Shown: positions 10,018 to 41,591 of the stretch, one piece after another
Position numbering within the stretch: position 1 is the stretch's first letter
How the letters are laid out: each line of letters opens with the position of its first letter
Assembly (NCBI GenBank): GCA_947303755.1
Contig: CAMYZF010000002.1
Coordinates: 1-47,224, forward strand
DNA: 47,224 nucleotides
Direction of reading: 5' to 3'
Source of the DNA: an uncultured Erysipelotrichaceae bacterium
Lineage (GTDB): Bacteria; Bacillota_I; Bacilli_A; RFN20; CAG-826
Notes under the pieces: generated by a model
Seen by the model: only the letters and a program-made list of their open reading frames with translations
What the model was told of the DNA's origin: nothing
Databases searched by the model: none
Position numbers and translations under genes: made by a program

Positions 10018-11205
10018 TTATTGTTTATTGTGAACAAATTTTTGGAAGTTTAAAGCGTCTTTTAAATCATCAAAAATAGCGATGAAAAATTCATCTCCCA
10101 TCGCTTGTCTAAATGATTCAGAATAATAGCCGTGTTCAATAATATTTTTACGATAGAATTTTTCAATATCCCCTGCAGATTCCACATATTTGTACTCATT
10201 TTTGCGATTTACTGAAATGGATACTTTATTAGTAGAATTGTCTAAATTTGAGATGTTTTTAGTGATGACATCTGCGTAGGTTTGATAGTAGTCAAATTTG
10301 GACACTAAATTGAGGAGTTCTGGGGTGTCTCCTCCTGGTGAACGTAGGTTAGCTTCAAGGGCAACAATTTCACCTTTATTTGCTAAGCCTTTTTTATCTT
10401 GAGTAAGGACAAAGAATTCTATGTGAAAACATCTTGATCTGATATTAAAAGATTTGACGACTCTTTCACCCATCTTTTTAAATTCTTCATTCATTGAGCT
10501 TTTTGCGTAATAATAGACATCTTTATTTTCTCTAACGACTGTCGCGATAGGAGTAGGGAATGTTTCATTAAAACAGATGACAACATCGCTTTGCTCGTTA
10601 GCGATTCCATCAAAAGATGTGATATATCCTTCTAAATATTCTTCGATGATGTATTTTTCATGAAGATCTTGATTATGGAAATTAGCTAGATCTTCTTCGT
10701 TTGAGATTTTAAATGTATCGGATGCACCGACACCAGAATCTGGTTTAGCAAATAAGGGATAGCCAACTTCTTTAGCAAATTTCTTTGATTCATCTAAAGA
10801 AGAAGCAATTATGTATCTTGCAGTTTTCACTCCAGCGTTTTGGAAATATTTCTTCATGCTGGATTTGCATTTATAGTCTAATAATTCTAGATAACGATAA
10901 CCTTTTTCGACAGCGAATTCTTCTCTTAATTTTGCATCGTTTTCCATCCAATATTCATTGTTGGATTCAATGAAATCGATGTGACCATATTTGCTTTGCA
11001 AATAACCAATCGTATTTCTCATCCAATCATAGTTGTTCATATTGGATACATAACAATACTCAGTTAGATTATCTTTTAACTCTTGATTTAGATTAGCATA
11101 TTGTTCATCACCAATACCTAAAACATTCACGCCTCTTTCTTTGAGAGCTTTGACGAAATGTGAATAAATTTTTGGGAAATTTGGTGATATAAATACGAAA
11201 TTCAT
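10018..11205 (-). CDS. ATP-grasp domain protein (ligase of unknown substrate)
   Basis: GYPLFAKPDSGVGASDTFKI, YIIEEYLEG and VALEANLRSPGG match ATP-grasp nucleotide-binding and catalytic-loop patterns. 395 aa. Confidence 0.75.
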   Translation of the reverse strand: MNFVFISPNFPKIYSHFVKALKERGVNVLGIGDEQYANLNQELKDNLTEYCYVSNMNNYDWMRNTIGYLQSKYGHIDFIESNNEYWMENDAKLREEFAVEKGYRYLELLDYKCKSSMKKYFQNAGVKTARYIIASSLDESKKFAKEVGYPLFAKPDSGVGASDTFKISNEEDLANFHNQDLHEKYIIEEYLEGYITSFDGIANEQSDVVICFNETFPTPIATVVRENKDVYYYAKSSMNEEFKKMGERVVKSFNIRSRCFHIEFFVLTQDKKGLANKGEIVALEANLRSPGGDTPELLNLVSKFDYYQTYADVITKNISNLDNSTNKVSISVNRKNEYKYVESAGDIEKFYRKNIIEHGYYSESFRQAMGDEFFIAIFDDLKDALNFQKFVHNKQ

Positions 11206-21558: not shown

Positions 21559-23673
21559 TTAGATAGCTTTGATAATTACTTTGCCATCATAATCGACAAG
21601 ATATTTATGTTTGGTATCAACTTTACCTTCTATAATCTCTTGAGCGATTATGGTTTCAACTTCATTAGAGATAAATCTCTTTAATGGTCTAGCTCCAAAT
21701 TCAAACGAGAATGAGGAATCAAGAATCCATTTTTTGAGCTTCTCCGAGAATTCGAATGAAAAGTAATTTTCTTTTAGACGATCATTTAAGATGTTAAGTA
21801 ACTTTGTGACAATCTTGAATTGGACTTCTTTTCCTAAAGGTTTGAAATATACTATTTCATCGATACGATTTAGGAATTCTGGTCTAAAGTGAGTACGGAG
21901 CAACTTCTCAACACTTTCTTGCTTGTTCTCAAGAAGAAGATCAGAACCTAGGTTAGAGGTCATGATGATAATCGTGTTCTTGAAGTCAACAACTCGACCT
22001 TGTGAATCGGTTAAGCGACCATCATCAAGGATTTGAAGGAGAAGATTAAATACTTCTGGATGTGCTTTTTCGATTTCATCGAATAAGACGATGGAGTAGG
22101 GGTTTCTTCTCACTTTTTCAGTTAATTGACCGCCTTCTTCATAACCAACATATCCTGGTGGCGCGCCAATGAGTCGAGATGTGGAGTATTTCTCCATATA
22201 TTCAGACATATCGATTCTGACCATGTGCGATTCAGAATCAAATAATGATTCTGCTAGCGCCCTTGCAACTTCGGTTTTACCAACACCAGTTGGGCCTAAG
22301 AAGAGAAAACTACCAATCGGTTTGTTTTGATCTTTAATACCTGCTCTTTGACGAATGATGGCATCCGAGACAAGCTTAATAGCTTCGTCTTGACCAATAA
22401 CCCTCTTTTCTAGAGTGTTTTTAAGATGTAAAACCTTTTCTTTTTCACCTTCCGCAATCTTATTTAATGGAATATTCGTGAGTTTTGAGACGATTTTTGC
22501 AATATCATTCTCAGTTACAACCTCACTTAAAATTCGGTCAACATTCTTATTTTGTTCAAGATTTGCTAGCTCTTTTTCAGCTTCAGGGATCTTTTTATAC
22601 TGCAGTTCACTAGCAACTTTGTAATTAGCTTCCACAAAAGCATTTGATAAGTCATTACGAAGTTTATCTAATTGAACTTTTAACTCTTTAGCGCGATTAA
22701 TATCGGTTTTTTCTTTCTCCCAACGCTCATTAAGAGAATTCTGTTCTTTTTTAGCTTCTTCGAGATTTTCTTTTACTTTTTCTAATCTTTTCTTAGAAGC
22801 ATCATCTTTTTCTTTCTCTAAAGCGACCTTTTCAATTTCAAGAAGTTTGATCTTACGATTGATTTCATCAAGTTCAGTAGGAGTGGATTCGATTTCCACG
22901 CGAATTGAGGCACAAGCTTCATCGATTAAATCGATAGCCTTGTCTGGAAGAAATCTAGATGTAATGTAACGGTTAGATAGGGTGACCGCTGCGACGATCG
23001 CGTTATCAGTGATTTTAACACCATGATGGGATTCGAACTTCTCTTTAAGACCTCTTAAGATACTTAAAGTATCTTCAACTGTTGGTTCGTTAACCATTAC
23101 AGGTTGGAATCTTCTTTCGAGCGCGCGATCCTTTTCAATATATTGTCTATATTCATTTAGCGTAGTGGCGCCGATACAATCGATTTCACCTCTAGCAAGC
23201 ATTGGTTTAAGCATATTTGAGGCGTCTAGTGCGCCATCGCTTCGACCTGCTCCAACGATAAGATGAATTTCATCGATGAAAAGAATAATCTTTCCTTCGG
23301 AATCTTTGATCTTATTTAAAACGGCTTTAAGTCTTTCTTCGAACTCTCCACGATATTTAGCACCTGCAACAAGCGCGCCCATATCGAGTTCGTAGATTGT
23401 TTTTCCTTTTAAGGAAGTAGGGACGTCATCTTGAACAATTCTTTGAGCTAAACCTTCAAGAATTGCGGTTTTACCAACGCCTGGCTCGCCAATTAAAATG
23501 ACATTGTTTTTATTTTTACGTGCAAGAATCTCGATAATCTTACGAATTTCGTTATCTCGACCAATGACTGGATCAATTTTTCCGTCTTTGGCTTGCTTGG
23601 TGATATCTCGGCCAAACTTTTCGAGGATGTTCTCATCGTTTTGATAATCTTGCATACCATCCATATTATCCAT
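21559..23673 (-). CDS. clpB: ClpB-type AAA+ disaggregase lacking the N-terminal Clp_N domain
   Basis: Two Walker A sites ([18 protein letters not shown]) and a long coiled-coil middle domain between the AAA modules. The protein starts only ~60 aa before the first Walker A. SD AAAGGAGG. Confidence 0.93.
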
Positions 23674-23690
23674 AATATATTACCTCCTTT

Positions 23691-23717
23691 TTGGCACTCT
23701 TACACTTTGAGTGCTAA
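23691..23717 (-). promoter_or_regulatory. CIRCE element (HrcA operator), promoter-proximal, covering the predicted clpB transcription start site (TSS)
   Basis: The minus strand reads TTAGCACTC-AAAGTGTAA-GAGTGCCAA, versus consensus TTAGCACTC-N9-GAGTGCTAA. Confidence 0.9.
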
Positions 23718-23721
23718 ATAT

Positions 23722-23749
23722 ATTATACAATCAAATTGGCACTCGTCAA
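23722..23749 (-). promoter_or_regulatory. clpB promoter TTGACG-16-TATAAT
   Basis: -35 TTGACG (23749->23744) lies inside the distal CIRCE. -10 TATAAT (23727->23722) lies between the two CIRCE copies. Confidence 0.7.
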
Positions 23750-23762
23750 TAGAGAGTGCTAA
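23736..23762 (-). promoter_or_regulatory. CIRCE element (HrcA operator), distal, overlapping the clpB -35
   Basis: The minus strand reads TTAGCACTC-TCTATTGAC-GAGTGCCAA. Confidence 0.9.
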
Positions 23763-23874
23763 AATATTTTGATTAATACAAAGTATTAAAAATTTGAGTA
23801 AGAAAACGAAAAAGACCAAGAAATTGACCTTGAATAAAATAATTTAATTAGTGCTATTAAGACAAAGTCTTGTT

Positions 23875-23883
23875 TGATATAAT
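23875..23883 (+). promoter_or_regulatory. Extended -10 promoter TGaTATAAT for the small-peptide transcript
   Basis: TG 23875-23876 and TATAAT 23878-23883. Confidence 0.5.
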
Positions 23884-23915
23884 TGTTTCAAGACAAAGCA
23901 AAGTCTATAAAACTC

Positions 23916-24114
23916 GGAACGGAATACCTCTGGGACTATACACATGTATAGAAAGGAGGTAAAGCCACAATGAGAGACAAGTCAAAAGACATCATTGATG
24001 CTCTTAAGATTGCTCTAATTTGTCTTCTTCTATGTTTAGCGGCGCTGCTGTTCAAATAAAAAAGAAGTCTCAGACTATGTTGCACAATTAGTTTAGTCCC
24101 AGAGGCTCCGTTCT
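23916..24114 (+). other. Long-range inverted repeat (5' arm 23916-23937, 3' arm 24095-24114) enclosing the peptide ORF
   Basis: GGAACGGA-ATA-CCTCTGGGACT versus AGTCCCAGAGG-C-TCCGTTCT: 11 bp plus 7-8 bp with a small internal loop. Confidence 0.8.
23970..24059 (+). CDS. 29-aa hydrophobic peptide (MRDKSKDIIDALKIALICLLLCLAALLFK), candidate type I toxin-like membrane peptide
   Basis: Strong SD GAAAGGAGG (23951-23959) 10 nt upstream of the ATG. Charged N-terminus plus one ~20-aa hydrophobic helix. The ORF is bracketed by pairing UTR arms. It is too short to appear in the ORF track. Confidence 0.5.
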   Translation: MRDKSKDIIDALKIALICLLLCLAALLFK

Positions 24115-24117
24115 TGT
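24055..24117 (-). ncRNA. Predicted ~60-nt cis-antisense RNA over the 3' UTR of the peptide mRNA
   Basis: Minus-strand extended -10 TGcTATAAT (24132->24124) with TTGTCC (24151->24146) 16 nt upstream. TSS about 24117. A short hairpin AGTC-TGA-GACT is followed by TTCTTTTTTATTT, ending near 24055. Confidence 0.3.
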
Positions 24118-24139
24118 GCATACATTATAGCACATTTTT
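24115..24139 (+). terminator. Weak terminator of the peptide transcript; its loop holds the antisense -10 box
   Basis: TGTGC (24115-24119) / GCACA (24130-24134) followed by TTTTT. Confidence 0.45.
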
Positions 24140-24143
24140 ATAG

Positions 24144-25046
24144 ATGGACAATCTAGATTCATTATTTAACAAAAAAGAGTACGATTTGGTCATCAAATTG
24201 ACTGAATTATCTAATGATCCAAAAGATCTCTTTTTGCGTATTTCTTCTTATATTGCATTAGGTAAAACTGACGCTGCACTCGATACAATCGAGAAATATC
24301 AAACTCTCATTGAAACTAAATTTCCTTTTCAGCTAATGAAACTTCATTTTGAGCTACTCTTATCCAAGCAACTTTTTGATGAAGCAAATTTAGCGTTAAA
24401 ACATTACGAAAATCTCCCATATATTTCCCAAGAAGTTGAAGAATTTATGCGAGACATGAAACAAAGAATTATTGATGAATCTCATCCAAAAGGAACAAAG
24501 ACTGTTAATCTTGATGAGATTTATGACGTCTTAGAAATTAGCACCGATCAAAGCAAGATTTCTCAAGTTATTTTCTCTTTGAAAAATTATAATCTCAATA
24601 TTTATATTGATTCACTCAAAATCTTTTTAACTAGAGAAGATGTTCATCCAAACTTTAGGACATACGCTTTAATCTTGCTTGTGGATAATAAATATGATGA
24701 AAATATCAAGTTCTTATCTTTAAATGGAGTGGTGGAGGTTAATCCCGCTAAATTGTTCCCTCCATTTATGAGCAAGCAGTTTAATGAGGTGTGTAAATTA
24801 ATCACAATCAAAGCGGAACAAAATATCACTTTAACTGAAACTGCCCTCCATTTATTTAATTGTTTCATCATTGATACTTATCCTACTAACATCTATCAAG
24901 ACGGAACGGAAGAACTCGCTAAAGCCTTCATTCATATTGCTAAGTCTTATCTTAACATTGGTGATTCATCTATAGATGAAAACACTAAGAAATTAGCGAA
25001 CAATATCAAATACATTATCGAGTCAACACCCGATATTAAACTATAA
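24144..25046 (+). CDS. Hypothetical all-helical repeat protein (300 aa) upstream of tig-lon
   Basis: Long uninterrupted ORF with amphipathic helix-rich, TPR-like sequence. No catalytic motif recognised and no SD upstream. Confidence 0.6.
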   Translation: MDNLDSLFNKKEYDLVIKLTELSNDPKDLFLRISSYIALGKTDAALDTIEKYQTLIETKFPFQLMKLHFELLLSKQLFDEANLALKHYENLPYISQEVEEFMRDMKQRIIDESHPKGTKTVNLDEIYDVLEISTDQSKISQVIFSLKNYNLNIYIDSLKIFLTREDVHPNFRTYALILLVDNKYDENIKFLSLNGVVEVNPAKLFPPFMSKQFNEVCKLITIKAEQNITLTETALHLFNCFIIDTYPTNIYQDGTEELAKAFIHIAKSYLNIGDSSIDENTKKLANNIKYIIESTPDIKL

Positions 25047-29401: not shown

Positions 29402-29407
29402 TTAAAT

Positions 29408-29610
29408 ACCGTTGAACAAGAAGTTATTTAGGTCATTTAGTCTAGAGAGCGGTGCAATGGTGGAATAACCGTCTAAATCCTAAATATGGTCGCTTGCGAG
29501 GTTGAACAATAGTTCCGTAAATCTGCGATAAAGATAATGAGTGCTATAACTATGTTATAGAATTAAGGTGGTACCACGTTAATAGCGTCCTTAAATTAGG
29601 ACGCTTTTAT
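29408..29610 (+). promoter_or_regulatory. T-box leader (tRNA-sensing riboswitch), valine-specific candidate
   Basis: AGAGAG box (29444-29449). T-box sequence AATTAAGGTGGTACCACG (29561-29578). Terminator AGCGTCCT/AGGACGCT (29584-29606) followed by TTTTAT. Candidate specifier GUC at 29489-29491. valS lies downstream. Confidence 0.85.
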
Positions 29611-29626: not shown

Positions 29627-32176
29627 ATGTTAGAAAAACGTTATGATCCAAAGAAAGTTGAAGAAGGTAAATACGATTCTTGGAAAAAAGAAGGCTATTT
29701 TACCGCTGGAGATATTTCCAAGAAACCATTTTCAATGGTTATTCCTCCTCCAAATGTCACTGGAAAACTCCACCTTGGTCACGCTTGGAATACAACCATT
29801 CAAGATATAACCGCAAGATATAAAAAGCTTCAGGGCTACGATGTTATGTGGCTAGCAGGTATGGACCACGCTGGCATCGCTACCCAAGCTAAAGTTGAAG
29901 AAAAACTTCGTAAAGAAGGTTTATCTAGATACGATCTTGGTCGTGAGAAGTTTTTAGATAGAGCGTGGCAGTGGAAAGCCGAATACGCGGATAACATTCA
30001 CAAACAATGGGCGAAAATGGGCTTAATGCTCGATTATAGCCGCGAAAGATTCACTTTAGATGAATCTCTTAACAAAGCTGTTGTTCATGTCTTTAAGACA
30101 CTTTATGACAAAGGTTTGATCTATCGCGGTGAAAGAATCATCAATTTCGACCCTGAATTAAAGACTGCTTTAAGTAACATTGAAGTCGAATATAGCGAAG
30201 ACAAAGGCAAATTCTATTATTTTAAATATCCAATCGTTGGCTCTAACGAATTTTTAGTGGTCGCCACAACTCGTCCTGAAACAATGTTTGGTGATACAGC
30301 TGTTTTTGTTAATCCAAAGGATAAACGCTACAAACATTTAATCGGTAAAAAAGTTATTAACCCAGCTAACGAAGAAGCTCTTCCAATCATGGGTGATGAA
30401 TATGTCGATATCGAATTCGGTACTGGGGCGATGAAATGTACTCCAGCGCACGATCCTAACGACTTCGCTTTAAGCGAAAAATATAATTTAAAACGCATTG
30501 TCTGCATGGATTTAAATGCAAAGATGAACGAAAATTGCGGCAAATATAAAGGTTTAGACCGTTATGAATGCCGTGACAAATTAGTTGAACAAATCCAAAA
30601 AGATGGTCGCCTAATTAAGATCGAAGATATCGTTCACACTGTCGGCCATTCCGAAAGAAGCCATACAGTAGTGGAACCAATGCTTATGAAACAATGGTTC
30701 GTCAAAATGCGCCCACTTGCTGATCAAGCTCTAAAAAAATCTACAGTGAACTTTGTTCCAGCTAGATTTAACAATACCTTTAGACAATGGATGGAAAACG
30801 TTGATGACTGGTGTATCTCTCGTCAGCTTTGGTGGGGACATCGTATTCCTGCTTATTATAATAAGCAAACTGGTGATATTATCGTCAGCGAAAAACCTAT
30901 CAACGATCCAAACTATTATCAAGATGAAGACGTTTTAGATACTTGGTTCTCATCCGCACTTTGGCCGTTTGCAACTCTAGGTTGGCCAAATGAAAACGCA
31001 CCAGACTATAAGAGATATTTCCCGAATTCACTTTTAGTGACTGCTTATGACATTATCTTCTTCTGGGTTTCTAGAATGATTTTTGATTCACTAGAATTCA
31101 CTAAAGAATCTCCATTTAAAGATTGTTTAATCCATGGATTAATTAGAGATTCACAAGGTCGTAAGATGTCTAAGTCGCTCGGAAATGGAATCGACCCAAT
31201 CGATGTCATCGATAAATACGGGGTGGACGCTTTAAGATATTTCTTAACAACAGGTTCTGCTCCTGGACAAGATATCCGTTACATCGAAGAGAAAGTTCAA
31301 GCCAGTGCCAACTATCTTAATAAGATTTGGAACTCCGCTAGATATGTTTTGGAATCTCTTGGAGATAACTTCAAAGAAGTTAAGATTGACTTTAATTCTT
31401 TAAATGTTGTTGAAAAAGACATTTTAACTAAATTGAATAAGACCATTAAAACAGTTGAATCTTTGATGGATAAATACGAATATTCAATGGCCTCATCTTA
31501 TTTATATAATTTCGTTTATGATGATTTCTGCTCTTCATATCTAGAGATGAGTAAAGTCTCGTTACAAATGGGCGATGATAAATATAAAGAAGTGGTTAAA
31601 TCAGTATTACTTCATATTCTAAAGAATATCATTATCATGATTTACCCATTCGCTCCATTTATTGGCGAGGAATTATATTTAGCGCTCCCAGAGCATAAGA
31701 AATCAATCATGCTTGAATCATACGCTAAAGCGTTAGATATCAAAGAAGAAGAATACGAACAAGTGTCTAATCTTTATAAGATGATTCAAGATATCCGTAA
31801 CTACAAAGTGAATAACAAACTCGCTCCTAATTACAAACTTAAATTCATCGTTGAAGCAAAAGATGTTTTCCCAGGATTCAATGATTATTTAGCGAGATTT
31901 AGCTTTGCTAAAGAAATCGTTGTAGTTGAAAAAGCTTCCTCTAAAGGTATGCGCTACGCATATAAGGATATGAACTTATATATTGAAGACGATATTTCTA
32001 AAGAAGAACTTGAAGCGAAAAAAGCTAAAGATATTGCATTCTTGAAAGCTGAGATCGCCAGAAGTGAAGGCATGCTAAATAATGCAAACTTTGTTTCTAA
32101 GGCTCCAAAAGAAAAGGTCGATCTTGAAAGAGCAAAACTCGCTGAATTCAAAAAGAAACTTGCAGAGCTTAACTAA
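29627..32176 (+). CDS. valS: Valine--tRNA ligase
   Basis: PPPNVTGKLHLGHA (HIGH), KMSKSLGN (KMSKS), and a C-terminal coiled coil typical of ValRS. Confidence 0.97.
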   Translation: MLEKRYDPKKVEEGKYDSWKKEGYFTAGDISKKPFSMVIPPPNVTGKLHLGHAWNTTIQDITARYKKLQGYDVMWLAGMDHAGIATQAKVEEKLRKEGLSRYDLGREKFLDRAWQWKAEYADNIHKQWAKMGLMLDYSRERFTLDESLNKAVVHVFKTLYDKGLIYRGERIINFDPELKTALSNIEVEYSEDKGKFYYFKYPIVGSNEFLVVATTRPETMFGDTAVFVNPKDKRYKHLIGKKVINPANEEALPIMGDEYVDIEFGTGAMKCTPAHDPNDFALSEKYNLKRIVCMDLNAKMNENCGKYKGLDRYECRDKLVEQIQKDGRLIKIEDIVHTVGHSERSHTVVEPMLMKQWFVKMRPLADQALKKSTVNFVPARFNNTFRQWMENVDDWCISRQLWWGHRIPAYYNKQTGDIIVSEKPINDPNYYQDEDVLDTWFSSALWPFATLGWPNENAPDYKRYFPNSLLVTAYDIIFFWVSRMIFDSLEFTKESPFKDCLIHGLIRDSQGRKMSKSLGNGIDPIDVIDKYGVDALRYFLTTGSAPGQDIRYIEEKVQASANYLNKIWNSARYVLESLGDNFKEVKIDFNSLNVVEKDILTKLNKTIKTVESLMDKYEYSMASSYLYNFVYDDFCSSYLEMSKVSLQMGDDKYKEVVKSVLLHILKNIIIMIYPFAPFIGEELYLALPEHKKSIMLESYAKALDIKEEEYEQVSNLYKMIQDIRNYKVNNKLAPNYKLKFIVEAKDVFPGFNDYLARFSFAKEIVVVEKASSKGMRYAYKDMNLYIEDDISKEELEAKKAKDIAFLKAEIARSEGMLNNANFVSKAPKEKVDLERAKLAEFKKKLAELN

Positions 32177-34904: not shown

Positions 34905-35855
34905 ATGAATTACATCGTTTATGGCGAACAATATCCAATGATTAAAAAGCGCCTCGAGAAGGTCTTAAAAGAAAGACTCGGTGAGGTTGATGATTTTAAT
35001 GTCGTAAAATTTGAATATTCAAAGGATAACATCGATGAAATAGTGGATGAAGCCAGCATGCTTCCTTTAGGATATGATTCAAAAGCCGTGGTGGTGGATA
35101 AAGCCACATTTTTAGAGCCAAAAGGCGATAAAGAAGCCAATGAAAAAATCTATGAATTAATTCAAAATATCTCAGATTCTATCAATCTTATTTTGATTCT
35201 TAGAAGCGAAAATATCGATGATAAAAATGAAATAGTTAGCTTTATCAAAACTAACGGAGAAATATTTGAGATTCTTTCACCTAAGAAAGATGAATGGCCC
35301 ATTTATATCAAAAAATATTTCAAAGATAGAAATGTCCAAATTGATGATAACGCAGTGGAGGAACTTGCCTCTAGAGTCGATGGCGACTTAATGCGCTTTG
35401 TTAACGAGGCTAAAAAGCTTTGCTTATACAAAGATCATTTAACCTTAACAGACATCACTCTTATGGTGGCGAAGCCTCTTGAAGATGATGCTTTTCAAAT
35501 CACTAATGCGCTATATAGAGGTGATAACGCTGCAGCTTTATCAATCTTTAGAGATATCCGTTTGTTAGGCTCCAATTCAACCGATGGCTTAATTCCTATG
35601 CTTGGCTCACAGTTTAGATTTGCTTCCCAAGTTATGTTTTTAGCGTCACGTGGATTAGATCAAAAAGAAATCGCTAATCAACTAAAGGCCAATGAATTTA
35701 GAGTGAAAATCACATTAAAAAATGCGCGTCGTTTGTCTAGAAGACAAATCGCTCATGCATTAGATGATTTATATTATCTTGATTACCAAATTAAAAGCGG
35801 TCAGATCAACCGCTTCTATGGTTTAGAATTATTTTTAATTAATTTTCCAAACTAA
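34905..35855 (+). CDS. holA: DNA polymerase III delta subunit
   Basis: 316 aa with AAA-like fold features. The conserved position directly after comEC and convergent with rpsT matches Bacillus. No strong catalytic motif is expected for this family. Confidence 0.75.
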   Translation: MNYIVYGEQYPMIKKRLEKVLKERLGEVDDFNVVKFEYSKDNIDEIVDEASMLPLGYDSKAVVVDKATFLEPKGDKEANEKIYELIQNISDSINLILILRSENIDDKNEIVSFIKTNGEIFEILSPKKDEWPIYIKKYFKDRNVQIDDNAVEELASRVDGDLMRFVNEAKKLCLYKDHLTLTDITLMVAKPLEDDAFQITNALYRGDNAAALSIFRDIRLLGSNSTDGLIPMLGSQFRFASQVMFLASRGLDQKEIANQLKANEFRVKITLKNARRLSRRQIAHALDDLYYLDYQIKSGQINRFYGLELFLINFPN

Positions 35856-39257: not shown

Positions 39258-41591
39258 ATGGAAAAGTCGTTATCTCTTTCTGTTCACCAACTCGTCGATT
39301 TCTTATTAAGAACCGGCGATATCGATAATCGTGTTTATAACAAGACCACAATGAGTGAAGGAACGAAGATTCATTCCTTCCATCAATCTAGACAAAAGAA
39401 GAACTATATTCCCGAGTATTATCTAAGGGAAACATTTTATGTTTCTGATTTCACAGTTACTCTCGATGGGCGTGCTGACGGAATCATCATCGAAGACGAT
39501 GGAGCGACGGTGGATGAAATTAAATCAACCATCGCACCTCTTGAAGAATATTATGAATCACAAAAAGAATGGCATCTTGGTCAGGCTAAATGCTATGCAT
39601 TAATGTACGCTCATCTAAACAATCTTTCGGAAATCAAAGTTCAGCTAACTTATATCCAACAAATCGATAAAGAGAAAATGGTCAAACATTTCTCTTATAA
39701 GACAAGCGAACTTGAAGAATACGTTAAAGATTTAATCAAAGATTACATTGACTTTTATACTTATATTTTTGAACGAACCGAGAAAAGAAACGAATCCGCA
39801 AAAACTCTTGCGTTTCCATATCCAGAATTTAGAAAAGGTCAAAAGGAACTCGCCAAATATGTTTATGGTGTAGCAGTGAATGGTGGAACACTTTTCGCTG
39901 AAGCGCCAACTGGCATTGGTAAAACAATGTCCACCCTTTATCCATATGTGAGATCCTTTAAGGATGAGGAAAACCAAAAGATTTTCTATTTAACCGCTAA
40001 GAACTCTGGACGCTTTATGGCGTTTGAAGCAACTAAGCTCCTTCAAGAAACAGGTTTGGTGGCTTCTGGAATCGTCATCACTGCGAAAGACAAAATGTGC
40101 CTATGCCCAGGCAAAGGATGTAATCCTGATGAGTGTCCATTCGCAAAGGATTATTACACTCACATACGAAAAGTAATCACTGAATCGATTAGACAATACA
40201 ATCTCTTCTCGCCAGAAGTTATTACAGATATTGCAAAGCAATACGCGATTTGTCCATTCGAATTATCATTAGATTTATCCTTGTATGTCGACATCATTAT
40301 CTGCGACTACAATTATCTATTTGATCCGATGGTTTATCTTAAAAGATACTTTGATGAAGATGCATCAAAGATGATCGTACTTGTCGATGAAGCACACAAC
40401 TTAGTTGATCGTGGAAGAGAGATGTATTCGGCTTCGTTTAACTCCTACGCATTTAAATTAGCGAAGAGAGCAGTGAGACATCTTGAACACAAAAAGATTA
40501 AAAACGCTATAAAGCGTATCTCTAAATTATTCAATCAATTTGAAGACTTTGAAGAAGGCGAGACAATTATTGATGCTTTAGATCACACAGATCTAGCCGG
40601 CATCGATGCTTATCTATTAGCCGCCAGCGATGTCCTTAAACATCATCACGCTGCTATTAATGATGATTTCATCGATTTCTACTTTGAACTCAATAAATTC
40701 TCCAAACTCTACGAGCTACATGACTCGTCATTTACGTTATTTATCACAAAAACGCCTTCACAAGAGACGAAAGTTACTTTGTATTGCTTAGACCCAAGAG
40801 AGCATCTTAGGAACGCTTTAAACAAGGTAAAATCCAAGGTTATCTTCTCAGCAACTCTTTCACCTAGTGAATATTACATTGATCTCCTCGGAGGAAGAAA
40901 AGACACCCCGTTATTAACTCTTCCATCACCATTTCCAAAGGAAAATCTTGATTTAATGGTACTTCCAAATGTTTCGATTCGTTACAAAAATAGAGAGCAG
41001 ACTTACGAATTAGTCTCTGACTACATTAAAACTTTAGTGACAGGGCACGTAGGAAATTATTTCATCTACGTTCCAAGCTATGAATATTTGGAGAAACTCC
41101 AACCATATCTTGCGGATGGTGATTATACCCTCATCGTTCAAGAAAAGGATATGACCGAACAAGATAGAAGACAATTTTTGTCTTGCTTTGTTGATAAACC
41201 AGAAACATCCACAGTCGGTTTAGCGGTGGTTGGTGGTGCTTTTGGAGAAGGCATCGATTTAGTTAGCGAACGCCTTATTGGCGTTGTTGTGGTAGGAATT
41301 GGTCTACCACAAATCTGTTTTGAAAGAGATTTGATTCGCACCTATTTCGAAGAAAAATATGGAAAAGGCTATTCGTATTCTTATAAGAATCCTGGTATTA
41401 ACAAAGTTATGCAGGCGGTTGGGCGAGTCATTAGAAGCGAAACCGATAGAGGAGTAGCGTTGCTAATTGATGATAGATATTTATCTAGTTCCTATTCGAA
41501 CCTGTTTGAAAAGAATTGGAATCATTATAAAGTAGTGACTTCAATTAAAGATGTAAAAGAAGAAGTTGCTAACTTCTGGAAGAAAAAATAG
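39258..41591 (+). CDS. PD-(D/E)XK nuclease-like N-terminal domain fused to an XPD/DinG-family Fe-S helicase
   Basis: N-terminus: DGRADGII...VDEIKST...[10 protein letters not shown], a D...DEIK...QxxxY nuclease pattern. Helicase: [10 protein letters not shown] (motif I), VDEAHNL (DEAH), and a Cys cluster [15 protein letters not shown]...ICPF between motifs I and II. Confidence 0.8.

Follow-up and report, generated by a model that had tools for sequence, protein, structure and literature searches.

A candidate new type I toxin-antitoxin-like family in uncultured, low-GC Bacilli of the gut and rumen

The window analyzed here is a 47-kb contig stretch (47,224 nt) of an uncultured Erysipelotrichaceae bacterium, and positions are given on its plus strand unless (-) is added. 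Between clpB and an operon that begins with a gene for a 300-aa protein, followed by tig and lon, lies a unit of about 245 nt (23889-24135). We propose that it belongs, as one copy, to a family of type I toxin-antitoxin-like modules that has not been described before and that occurs in uncultured Bacilli of low GC content from gut and rumen. Judging from the sequence, we would put the probability of this reading at about 65%. Type I modules are defined by a short mRNA (150-400 nt) and a small (20-60 aa), usually hydrophobic protein (PMC8594479). The size of the unit, its 29 codons, the single hydrophobic helix of the predicted peptide and the substitution pattern of the coding sequence would all fit this class. 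An earlier note, made from the letters of this DNA without database searches, had suggested a module of this type. Every feature that it listed is present where it had placed it, and the suggestion has come through all of the sequence-based tests, namely, selection on the ORF, covariation of the lock between the mRNA ends, an antisense promoter and terminator, and a repeated and variable unit.

The peptide and its predicted mRNA

The boundaries of the unit come from a family profile (nhmmer; E values of 1e-40 to 1e-75), which finds the family at 16 places, 10 of them distinct; the main alignment (A5) contains 12 copies. The ORF of 29 codons spans 23970-24059 and encodes the peptide MRDKSKDIIDALKIALICLLLCLAALLFK, whose N-terminal half is polar and charged and whose C-terminal part would form a single hydrophobic helix. 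Its Shine-Dalgarno (SD) sequence, GAAAGGAGG (23951-23959), is located 10 nt before the ATG at 23970 and is near-invariant over the 12 copies, with the form GAA(A/G)GGAGG. The ORF has 29 codons in 10 of the 12 copies and 27 codons in locus L077, and the peptides follow the pattern M-(K/R)-D-x-x-K-(D/E)-x-x-x-x-L-K-I-x-L-I-C-L-L-L-C-L-x-x-L-L-x-(K/R). Between pairs of close copies pN/pS is 0.09-0.29, and the five clpB-site alleles have 3, 4 and 13 variable sites at the first, second and third codon positions. Judging from these substitutions, the peptide ORF is under purifying selection.

The earlier note did not recognize the peptide as belonging to a named family, which agrees with searches of Pfam and NCBIfam, where no family matched. 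The seven family peptides joined as one query against a large protein collection, with E values up to 10, also gave nothing. A 61-aa minus-strand ORF (23936-24121), which one gene caller annotated in L068, belongs to no family and is not considered to be a gene because it has only two database proteins, both from the same type of locus, and the frame is lost in the other copies.

The extended -10 box TGaTATAAT (23875-23883), from which the sense RNA is predicted to start near 23890, had been taken as the promoter of the unit. This assignment has to be changed. Relatives that lack the unit at this site carry the box 6-8 nt before the ATG of the same 300-aa gene, and so, from this comparison, the box is the ancestral promoter of the 300-aa gene and tig-lon and lies outside the repeated unit. 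Other copies of the unit have a -10-like box of their own, located about 7 nt 5' of the GAC hairpin. This hairpin, AGAC-AAAGCAAA-GUCU (23891-23906), would form the 5' end of the mRNA. It is 100% paired in the 12 copies (helix 1), with two pairs changed on both sides, and it is likely that it stabilizes the predicted mRNA.

The central feature of the predicted mRNA is the pairing of two arms that enclose the ORF. The left arm, GGAACGGAATACCTCTGGGACT (23916-23937, in a span of 23916-23938), consists of an outer helix strand, GGAACGGA, and an inner one, CCUCUGGGACUA; the right arm, AGTCCCAGAGGCTCCGTTCT (24095-24114, in a span of 24094-24116), can be written as UAGUCCCAGAGG-C-UCCGUUCUUG. The earlier note described 11 bp plus 7-8 bp around a 3x1 internal loop, and we find 11-12 bp plus 8 bp around the same loop. 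RNAfold pairs the arms in its minimum-energy structure of 23890-24145, which has an energy of -75 kcal/mol as compared to -52.2 +/- 4.5 kcal/mol in 200 shuffles (z = -5.1). Over the 12 copies the two arm helices (helices 2 and 3) are 96.9% and 93.6% paired. The covariation check that the note had called for gave a two-part answer: the outer helix, in which GGAACGGA pairs with UCCGUUCU in the consensus, is invariant, and four inner pairs covary. For example, the inner helix is CCUCUGGGAC with GUCCCAGAGG in the window, CCUCCUAGAC with GUCUAGGAGG in L078 and CCUCUCAUAC with GUAUGAGGGG in L079, and these variants are compensatory sets.

The arms also have a relationship to the ribosome-binding site. 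The CCUCU of the inner helix CCUCUGGGACUA is an anti-SD sequence, and in the nascent 5' RNA the left-arm CCUCY pairs with GGAGG in all 12 copies, with a predicted probability of 0.00-0.03 that GGAGG is unpaired. The right arm carries AGAGG, which resembles an SD sequence. Therefore, the left arm would act as an anti-SD and the right arm as a mimic of the ribosome-binding site. A local hairpin, CUAUAC-ACAU-GUAUAG (23936-23951), abuts the ribosome-binding site and is nested in the nascent anti-SD/SD hairpin; its stem is kept and its loop is variable among the clpB-site copies, and most of the others have an equivalent hairpin. A second anti-SD, UGUCUUCU (24021-24028), lies inside the ORF in the codons of the conserved I-C-L-L and pairs with AGGAGGUA at 23954-23961 (helix 4). 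Published hallmarks of such mRNAs (PMC6733600) are that the primary transcript cannot be translated, that anti-SD sequences lie both 5' of the ORF and within it, and that the 5' and 3' ends interact over a long distance. The fold predicted here has the same layout, and the primary transcript would be non-translatable, with its ribosome-binding site sequestered.

Several comparisons indicate that this fold is conserved, covarying and specific for the plus strand. In the 12 copies, the consensus fold (34 pairs, 406 cells) is 94.3% paired versus 44-56% in slid controls, and 29 cells are changed on both sides, a number that none of 500 shuffles reaches; since the consensus structure was derived from the same alignment, these values are biased in its favor, and the slid controls and the strand test are more independent. 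In the strand test, pairing drops from 96.9% on the plus strand to 83.3% on the minus strand for the outer arm and from 97.9% to 62.5% for helix 4, which has 34 G-U cells. The two arm helices together have 22 G-U cells on the plus strand versus 3 on the minus strand.

At the clpB site an outer stem is added, formed by the inverted repeat UCUAUAAAA / UUUUAUAGA (23904-23912 / 24136-24144), which pairs in the minimum-energy fold and whose 3' half terminates on the A of the ATG of the 300-aa gene. This stem is present only in clpB-site copies, which have TCTATAAAA at the position where other copies have TCGTTAAAA. No Rfam family matched at the gathering score in the region or in five other loci, and the region searched at E values up to 10 gave only chance-level hits; on this result, a known structured RNA (6S, SRP or similar) closed by a 5'/3' stem was rejected as an explanation.

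A predicted antisense gene and a predicted switch

The note also claimed a convergent promoter, and this claim has been borne out as far as a consensus scan and an alignment can do so. The predicted antisense promoter at 24124-24151 (-) has TTGTCC (24151->24146) separated by 16 nt from TGcTATAAT, TGCTATAAT (24132->24124), and scores 10 of 12 plus the TG. None of the 12 copies has lost the minus-strand TGnTATAAT, and most of them also have a TTG-type -35 at a distance of 16-17 nt. The ATTATA-CA columns are invariant in the alignment and the box is kept despite variable flanks; read on the plus strand, the box is poor (TAGCAC, TAACAC, TAACAA). The source of the -35 differs with the location of the unit. 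In the window it is supplied by codons 2-3 (GACAA) of the 300-aa gene (24146-24151), and in tandem arrays the -35 (TTGTCT or TTTGCT) is the reverse complement of the GACAA at the 5' end of the next unit (L082 4375-4395, L083 945-960).

The antisense -10 had been described as lying in the loop of a weak terminator of the sense mRNA, TGTGC-N10-GCACA-T5 (24115-24139). The box in the loop is conserved, but the surrounding stem is not: it is broken in L069 and L076 and absent at the other sites, and the terminator scan called no terminator, so that the description of this element as a terminator is not upheld.

The predicted antisense RNA of about 60 nt (24117->24055 (-)) would start about 7 nt past the -10 and cover the 3' untranslated region (UTR) up to the stop codon. 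Its 5' part would be a tail that is complementary to the right arm, its target, and would be followed by a single long hairpin and a U-run. The note let it end in a short hairpin and a U-tract at the stop codon. The U-run is located there, but the short hairpin is replaced by a long interrupted one, whose two strands are the complements of the right arm and of the segment just 3' of the stop codon and which is followed by the U-run. On the plus strand, the corresponding sequence is the stop codon, an A-run and GAAGUCUCAGACUA (24057-24078), which on the minus strand gives the U-run and the 3' half of the terminator stem; the A-run and the G/C-rich segment that follows it are conserved in every copy.

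A hairpin plus U-run is predicted for the antisense RNA of all 10 distinct copies. The stem is 99% paired on the minus strand versus 74% when read on the plus strand. Its 25 G-U cells are valid only on the minus strand, and three of its pairs are changed on both sides. Since the predicted terminator stem pairs in a minus-strand-specific manner, via G-U, we consider a minus-strand RNA to be under selection; the evidence for this is indirect but strand-resolved.

Taken together, these features suggest how the unit might work. The sense mRNA would begin near 23890 from TGaTATAAT, carry the terminal hairpin and encode the 29-residue peptide. During transcription, the left arm (CCUCU) would hold the ribosome-binding site, and once the 3' end is made, the right arm would take the left arm into the 5'-3' closing helix. 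The ribosome-binding site would then be free, or held by a weaker G-U-rich pairing with UGUCUUCU in the ORF. Meanwhile, the convergent promoter at the 3' end of the unit would give rise to an RNA, about 60 nt long, with full complementarity to the 3' UTR and the right arm. Its binding would form a long duplex, inviting cleavage by the double-strand-specific RNase III, and would put the left arm back on the ribosome-binding site, so that translation is shut off. If the antisense RNA were lost, the stable mRNA would presumably be translated and the membrane peptide would harm the cell. In partition-function calculations for the window, the probability that GGAGG is unpaired falls from 0.43 in the free mRNA to 0.00 when the 3' UTR is masked, and the mean over the family falls from 0.14 to 0.013.

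A bolder combination can be formulated, which we think is possible but doubtful. The 3' arm would be a decoy ribosome-binding site that titrates the upstream anti-SD, and an antisense RNA that masks the decoy would shut off translation from about 150 nt away. At the same time, the operon (300-aa gene, tig, lon) would once have been leaderless and would have received the unit between its promoter and its start codon; its expression would now require that the toxin mRNA be read through or be processed by RNase III at the outer stem.

Sites, alleles and the downstream operon

The presence or absence of the unit displays a variable pattern. The clpB site is filled, with a gap of about 470 nt, in the window and in L068, L069, L071-L074 and L076, and the 300-aa proteins of the filled loci are 86-99% identical to that of the window (all measured except L076). 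It is empty in L070 and L075, where the 300-aa protein is 86% identical to that of the window, and in L001-L003 and L084-L091, where it is 76-78% identical; the gap in the empty loci is 141-170 nt. Empty sites have TGtTATAAT or TGcTATAAT 6-8 nt before the ATG of the 300-aa gene (8 nt in L070 and L075) and no ribosome-binding site, which, by its sequence, is the layout of a leaderless mRNA. Thus, at the clpB site, the unit is placed between the promoter of the operon and its start codon. When the 300-aa genes are placed on a tree, L070 and L075, which are empty, cluster with the filled L071 inside the filled clade. This would imply either that the unit was lost in both lineages or that there was exchange by recombination.

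A scan of metagenome contigs with a 19-mer of the left arm found a further clpB-site copy (L076), together with units at other sites. In L077 the unit lies between recA and rny, in L079 it is just 3' of the tmRNA, and tandem pairs are present in L082 and in L083/L078. Therefore, homologous units occur at four chromosomal sites beyond clpB, twice as tandem pairs. The second unit of one pair (L083 709-951 (-); also L078 2-178) has a 1-nt deletion that cuts the peptide after seven codons; the RNA features and the antisense promoter of this frameshifted copy are retained. Multiple copies, tandem repeats and variable presence among strains were a search criterion of Fozo et al. 2010 (see PMC8594479). 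The occurrence of the unit at five sites, the two tandem pairs, one of them with a frameshifted copy, and the filled and empty clpB alleles would fit this criterion.

All of the contigs with units are low in GC (33-39%) and come from gut and rumen Bacilli; two more matches of the 19-mer, in high-GC contigs, are attributed to chance. Neither the element nor the peptide was found in 67 species-representative loci with blastn, tblastn or nhmmer, and the unit had no match in plasmid and phage collections (blastn) or in two scans of viral contigs. The window has one copy of the unit; the left arm (21 nt) occurs once in it, and none of 100 shuffles matches at three or fewer mismatches.

The unit of the window is 97.6% identical to that of L071 (2746-2992), and yet pS between these loci is 0.54 for the 300-aa gene and 0.47 for clpB. 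L069 (1441-1681) is the closest relative by its flanks (pS of 0.30 for the 300-aa gene), and its element is only 85.8% identical. From these values, the history of the element is decoupled from that of its flanks. Between alleles, the 3' UTR, i.e., the predicted antisense target, is the most variable part (77-80% identity) and the 5' UTR the least variable (91-95%). Because the relatedness of the elements contradicts that of the flanks, an exchange of alleles by recombination is suggested, and the identities fit a diversification of the pairing region.

One segment of the clpB-site promoter may have its own history. The sequence AAGACAAAGTCTTGT (23859-23871), which is present in filled and empty sites, resembles the 5' start of the unit, AAGACAAAG, fused to the TCTTGT of its 3' end (23859-23871 was compared with 23890-23906 and 24110-24115, and with the promoter region of L070 and L075). 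This segment may have been left behind as a scar by an older unit that was deleted, or the resemblance may be due to chance.

The 300-aa gene (24144-25046) lies directly upstream of tig, then lon and a GTPase gene. Among 67 species-level genomes from rumen and gut, assigned to uncultured Bacilli or "Erysipelotrichaceae", almost all have it immediately 5' of tig. The protein alignment shows many invariant residues; the protein had no Pfam match, and a look-up of the exact sequence from the window found no record. At the filled sites this gene lacks both a ribosome-binding site and a -10 at the correct spacing, and in the window its ATG is at the end of the outer stem, within the -35 region of the antisense promoter (24136-24146). 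Read-through from the toxin promoter and processing at the outer stem (23904-23912/24136-24144) are two possible routes for its expression. Three other genes in the window (10018-11205 (-), 34905-35855 (+) and 39258-41591 (+)) have a TATAAT-like box 6-8 nt 5' of the ATG and no ribosome-binding site, and so leaderless mRNAs appear to be common in this organism.

On the other side of the gap, clpB (21559-23673 (-)) encodes a protein of 704 aa that appears to be missing the usual N-terminal domain because its first AAA domain begins near residue 58. The clpB promoter, TTGACG-16-TATAAT (23749->23722 (-)), lies between two CIRCE-like inverted repeats, TTGGCACTC-N9-GAGTGCTAA (23691-23718 and 23736-23763), both of which are kept in every relative aligned, and these repeats would suggest that clpB is under HrcA-type heat-shock control. 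Elsewhere in the window, a T-box leader (Rfam RF00230, 100.6 bits) is present at 29403-29595, upstream of an ORF of 849 aa (29627-32176).

Relation to known systems and other explanations

In the bsrG/SR4 system, binding of the antisense RNA at the 3' end promotes RNase III-dependent decay and tightens the sequestration of the distant ribosome-binding site. This 3'-end action is the mechanism that we infer for the unit. The antisense RNA lies on the 3' side in Gram-positive type I families, and bsrG/SR4, txpA/RatA, bsrE/SR5 and yonT/SR6 of Bacillus subtilis share with the unit a Bacillota host, a small hydrophobic peptide and a convergent antisense RNA on the 3' side (PMC8594479). The predicted antisense RNA (24117->24055) would fit the arrangement of the TxpA/RatA and BsrG/SR4 group, but sequence homology to this group was not found: searches of Pfam, NCBIfam and Rfam revealed no similarity in peptide or RNA sequence to the B. 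subtilis systems. The unit also differs from them in its 29-aa peptide with the hydrophobic helix at the C-terminal end, in its predicted antisense RNA of only about 60 nt, which ends at the stop codon and has no overlap with the ORF, and in the covarying 5'-3' closing helix of its mRNA.

The folding of the mRNA is more reminiscent of aapA/IsoA from Helicobacter pylori. There, too, the toxin has about 30 aa and the system is present in several chromosomal copies; the mRNA starts with a 5'-terminal hairpin, anti-SDs before and within the ORF act one after the other during transcription, and the 5' and 3' ends finally engage in a long-distance interaction (PMC6733600). However, the 3' partner in aapA sequesters the ribosome-binding site itself, whereas the 3' arm of the unit would sequester the upstream anti-SD. 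In addition, IsoA overlaps the 5' part and the ORF (PMC8594479), whereas the antisense RNA of the unit would cover the 3' UTR, with its promoter at the 3' end. Helicobacter pylori belongs to another phylum, and there is no sequence similarity.

Two other systems share some traits with the unit. The par locus of Enterococcus faecalis (fst RNA I / RNA II), together with the Fst/Ldr family, also has convergent genes that overlap at the terminator region and a peptide of about 30 aa, and its mRNA has a 5' stem-loop that sequesters the ribosome-binding site and a stabilizing 5' helix. However, neither the Fst model of Pfam nor Rfam gave a match, and the functional pairing in par takes place at 5' direct repeats outside the overlap (PMC8594479), whereas the antisense RNA of the unit resembles the 5' arm of the mRNA and is not complementary to it. 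Like the unit, hok/sok of plasmid R1 has a full-length mRNA locked by 5'-3' pairing, a small membrane peptide and an antisense antidote. However, hok requires the overlapping frame mok, its antisense RNA acts at the 5' leader, the system is Gram-negative and there is no match to Hok in Pfam. By analogy, then, the unit would be most like bsrG/SR4 and txpA/RatA in the position and inferred action of its antisense RNA and most like aapA/IsoA in the folding logic of its mRNA. Because Pfam, NCBIfam and Rfam give no family match, the unit is, by these searches, a member of no named family.

Several observations weigh against a type I module. First, the search of the seven family peptides against Pfam and NCBIfam, with E values up to 10, found no toxin family and only two hits, both far below the cutoff. 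Second, the sense mRNA has no convincing terminator, the terminator scan having given none, and at the clpB site it should, from the sequence, read into the 300-aa gene, which is unusual for a toxin mRNA. Third, the outer closing helix yields no covariation evidence because it is invariant. Fourth, five of the 12 copies have a ribosome-binding site that is predicted to stay sequestered whether or not the antisense RNA is present. Therefore, the switch either is not general or needs a further activating step, as may be the case by analogy with other type I systems. Finally, the family is known from 10 distinct copies, all of them metagenomic.

The explanation that survives best beside a toxin-antitoxin-like module, although we consider it unlikely, is that the unit is the gene of a harmless small membrane protein with antisense control, e.g., a small regulator or a subunit of a membrane complex, and that the RNAs only tune its level. 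A conserved ORF, a structured mRNA and an antisense gene would fit such a gene equally well, and the toxicity of the peptide is only predicted. One family member has a weak NCBIfam match to the small membrane protein YniD (E = 0.015, 14.8 bits), but this is far below the cutoff of 40. A gene with an ordinary role also would not be expected to be dispensable, as the unit is, with its presence varying among close relatives, nor to occur at unrelated sites and in tandem pairs, one of them with a frameshifted copy, nor to have a history decoupled from its flanks. Furthermore, the layered sequestration of the ribosome-binding site is a described hallmark of toxin mRNAs (PMC6733600).

An improbable explanation is that the unit is a cis-acting leader of the operon formed by the 300-aa gene, tig and lon, in which the small ORF would be an upstream sensor whose translation alters the fold of the leader and thereby controls the expression of the chaperone and protease. 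The position of the unit between the operon promoter and the first ATG, the outer stem (23904-23912/24136-24144) that reaches this ATG and the absence of a ribosome-binding site of the downstream gene's own speak for such a leader. It fails because the unit occurs in unrelated contexts: it adjoins unrelated genes and occurs in tandem, and in L082 the next gene 3' of the unit is on the opposite strand. Close relatives also run the operon without the unit, and a leader would leave the conserved antisense promoter and the minus-strand-specific terminator unexplained. Nevertheless, the unit may have a local side effect on the regulation of the operon.

The alternative in the earlier note, a miniature inverted-repeat transposable element whose arms are terminal inverted repeats read as DNA by a transposase, with an incidental ORF and promoters, would account for inverted repeats of about 20-40 nt near the ends of a unit that occurs at several sites with variable presence, but it is very improbable because the arms keep pairing via G-U, which are mismatches in DNA (22 on the plus strand versus 3 on the minus strand), the internal ORF appears to be under purifying selection, the arms are not at the very ends of the unit since the 5' hairpin and the antisense promoter lie outside of them, the 47-kb window has only one copy, and, in agreement with the note, which saw no duplicated flanks, no target-site duplications were found at six unit or array boundaries (shared flanks are at most 5-6 nt and none adjoins the unit ends). 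An integron attC site was also considered as the source of the arms and was rejected; by eye, the arm cores do not follow the RYYYAAC/GTTRRRY pattern, and each unit has its own promoters.

In conclusion, the candidate toxin-antitoxin-like family was recognized from raw sequence and then backed by covariation on both strands. No such system is annotated in these uncultured gut and rumen Bacilli, and type I systems in published surveys come from only a few phyla, which has been put down to search bias (PMC12390103). The general picture of how type I systems work would be unchanged. However, the compact set of natural variants, with a fixed 5' leader and with arms that change together with the antisense target, would be material for studying the evolution of specificity between a toxin mRNA and its antisense RNA. 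The clpB site would also provide a natural case of a unit that landed at the junction between promoter and start codon of a leaderless chaperone/protease operon.

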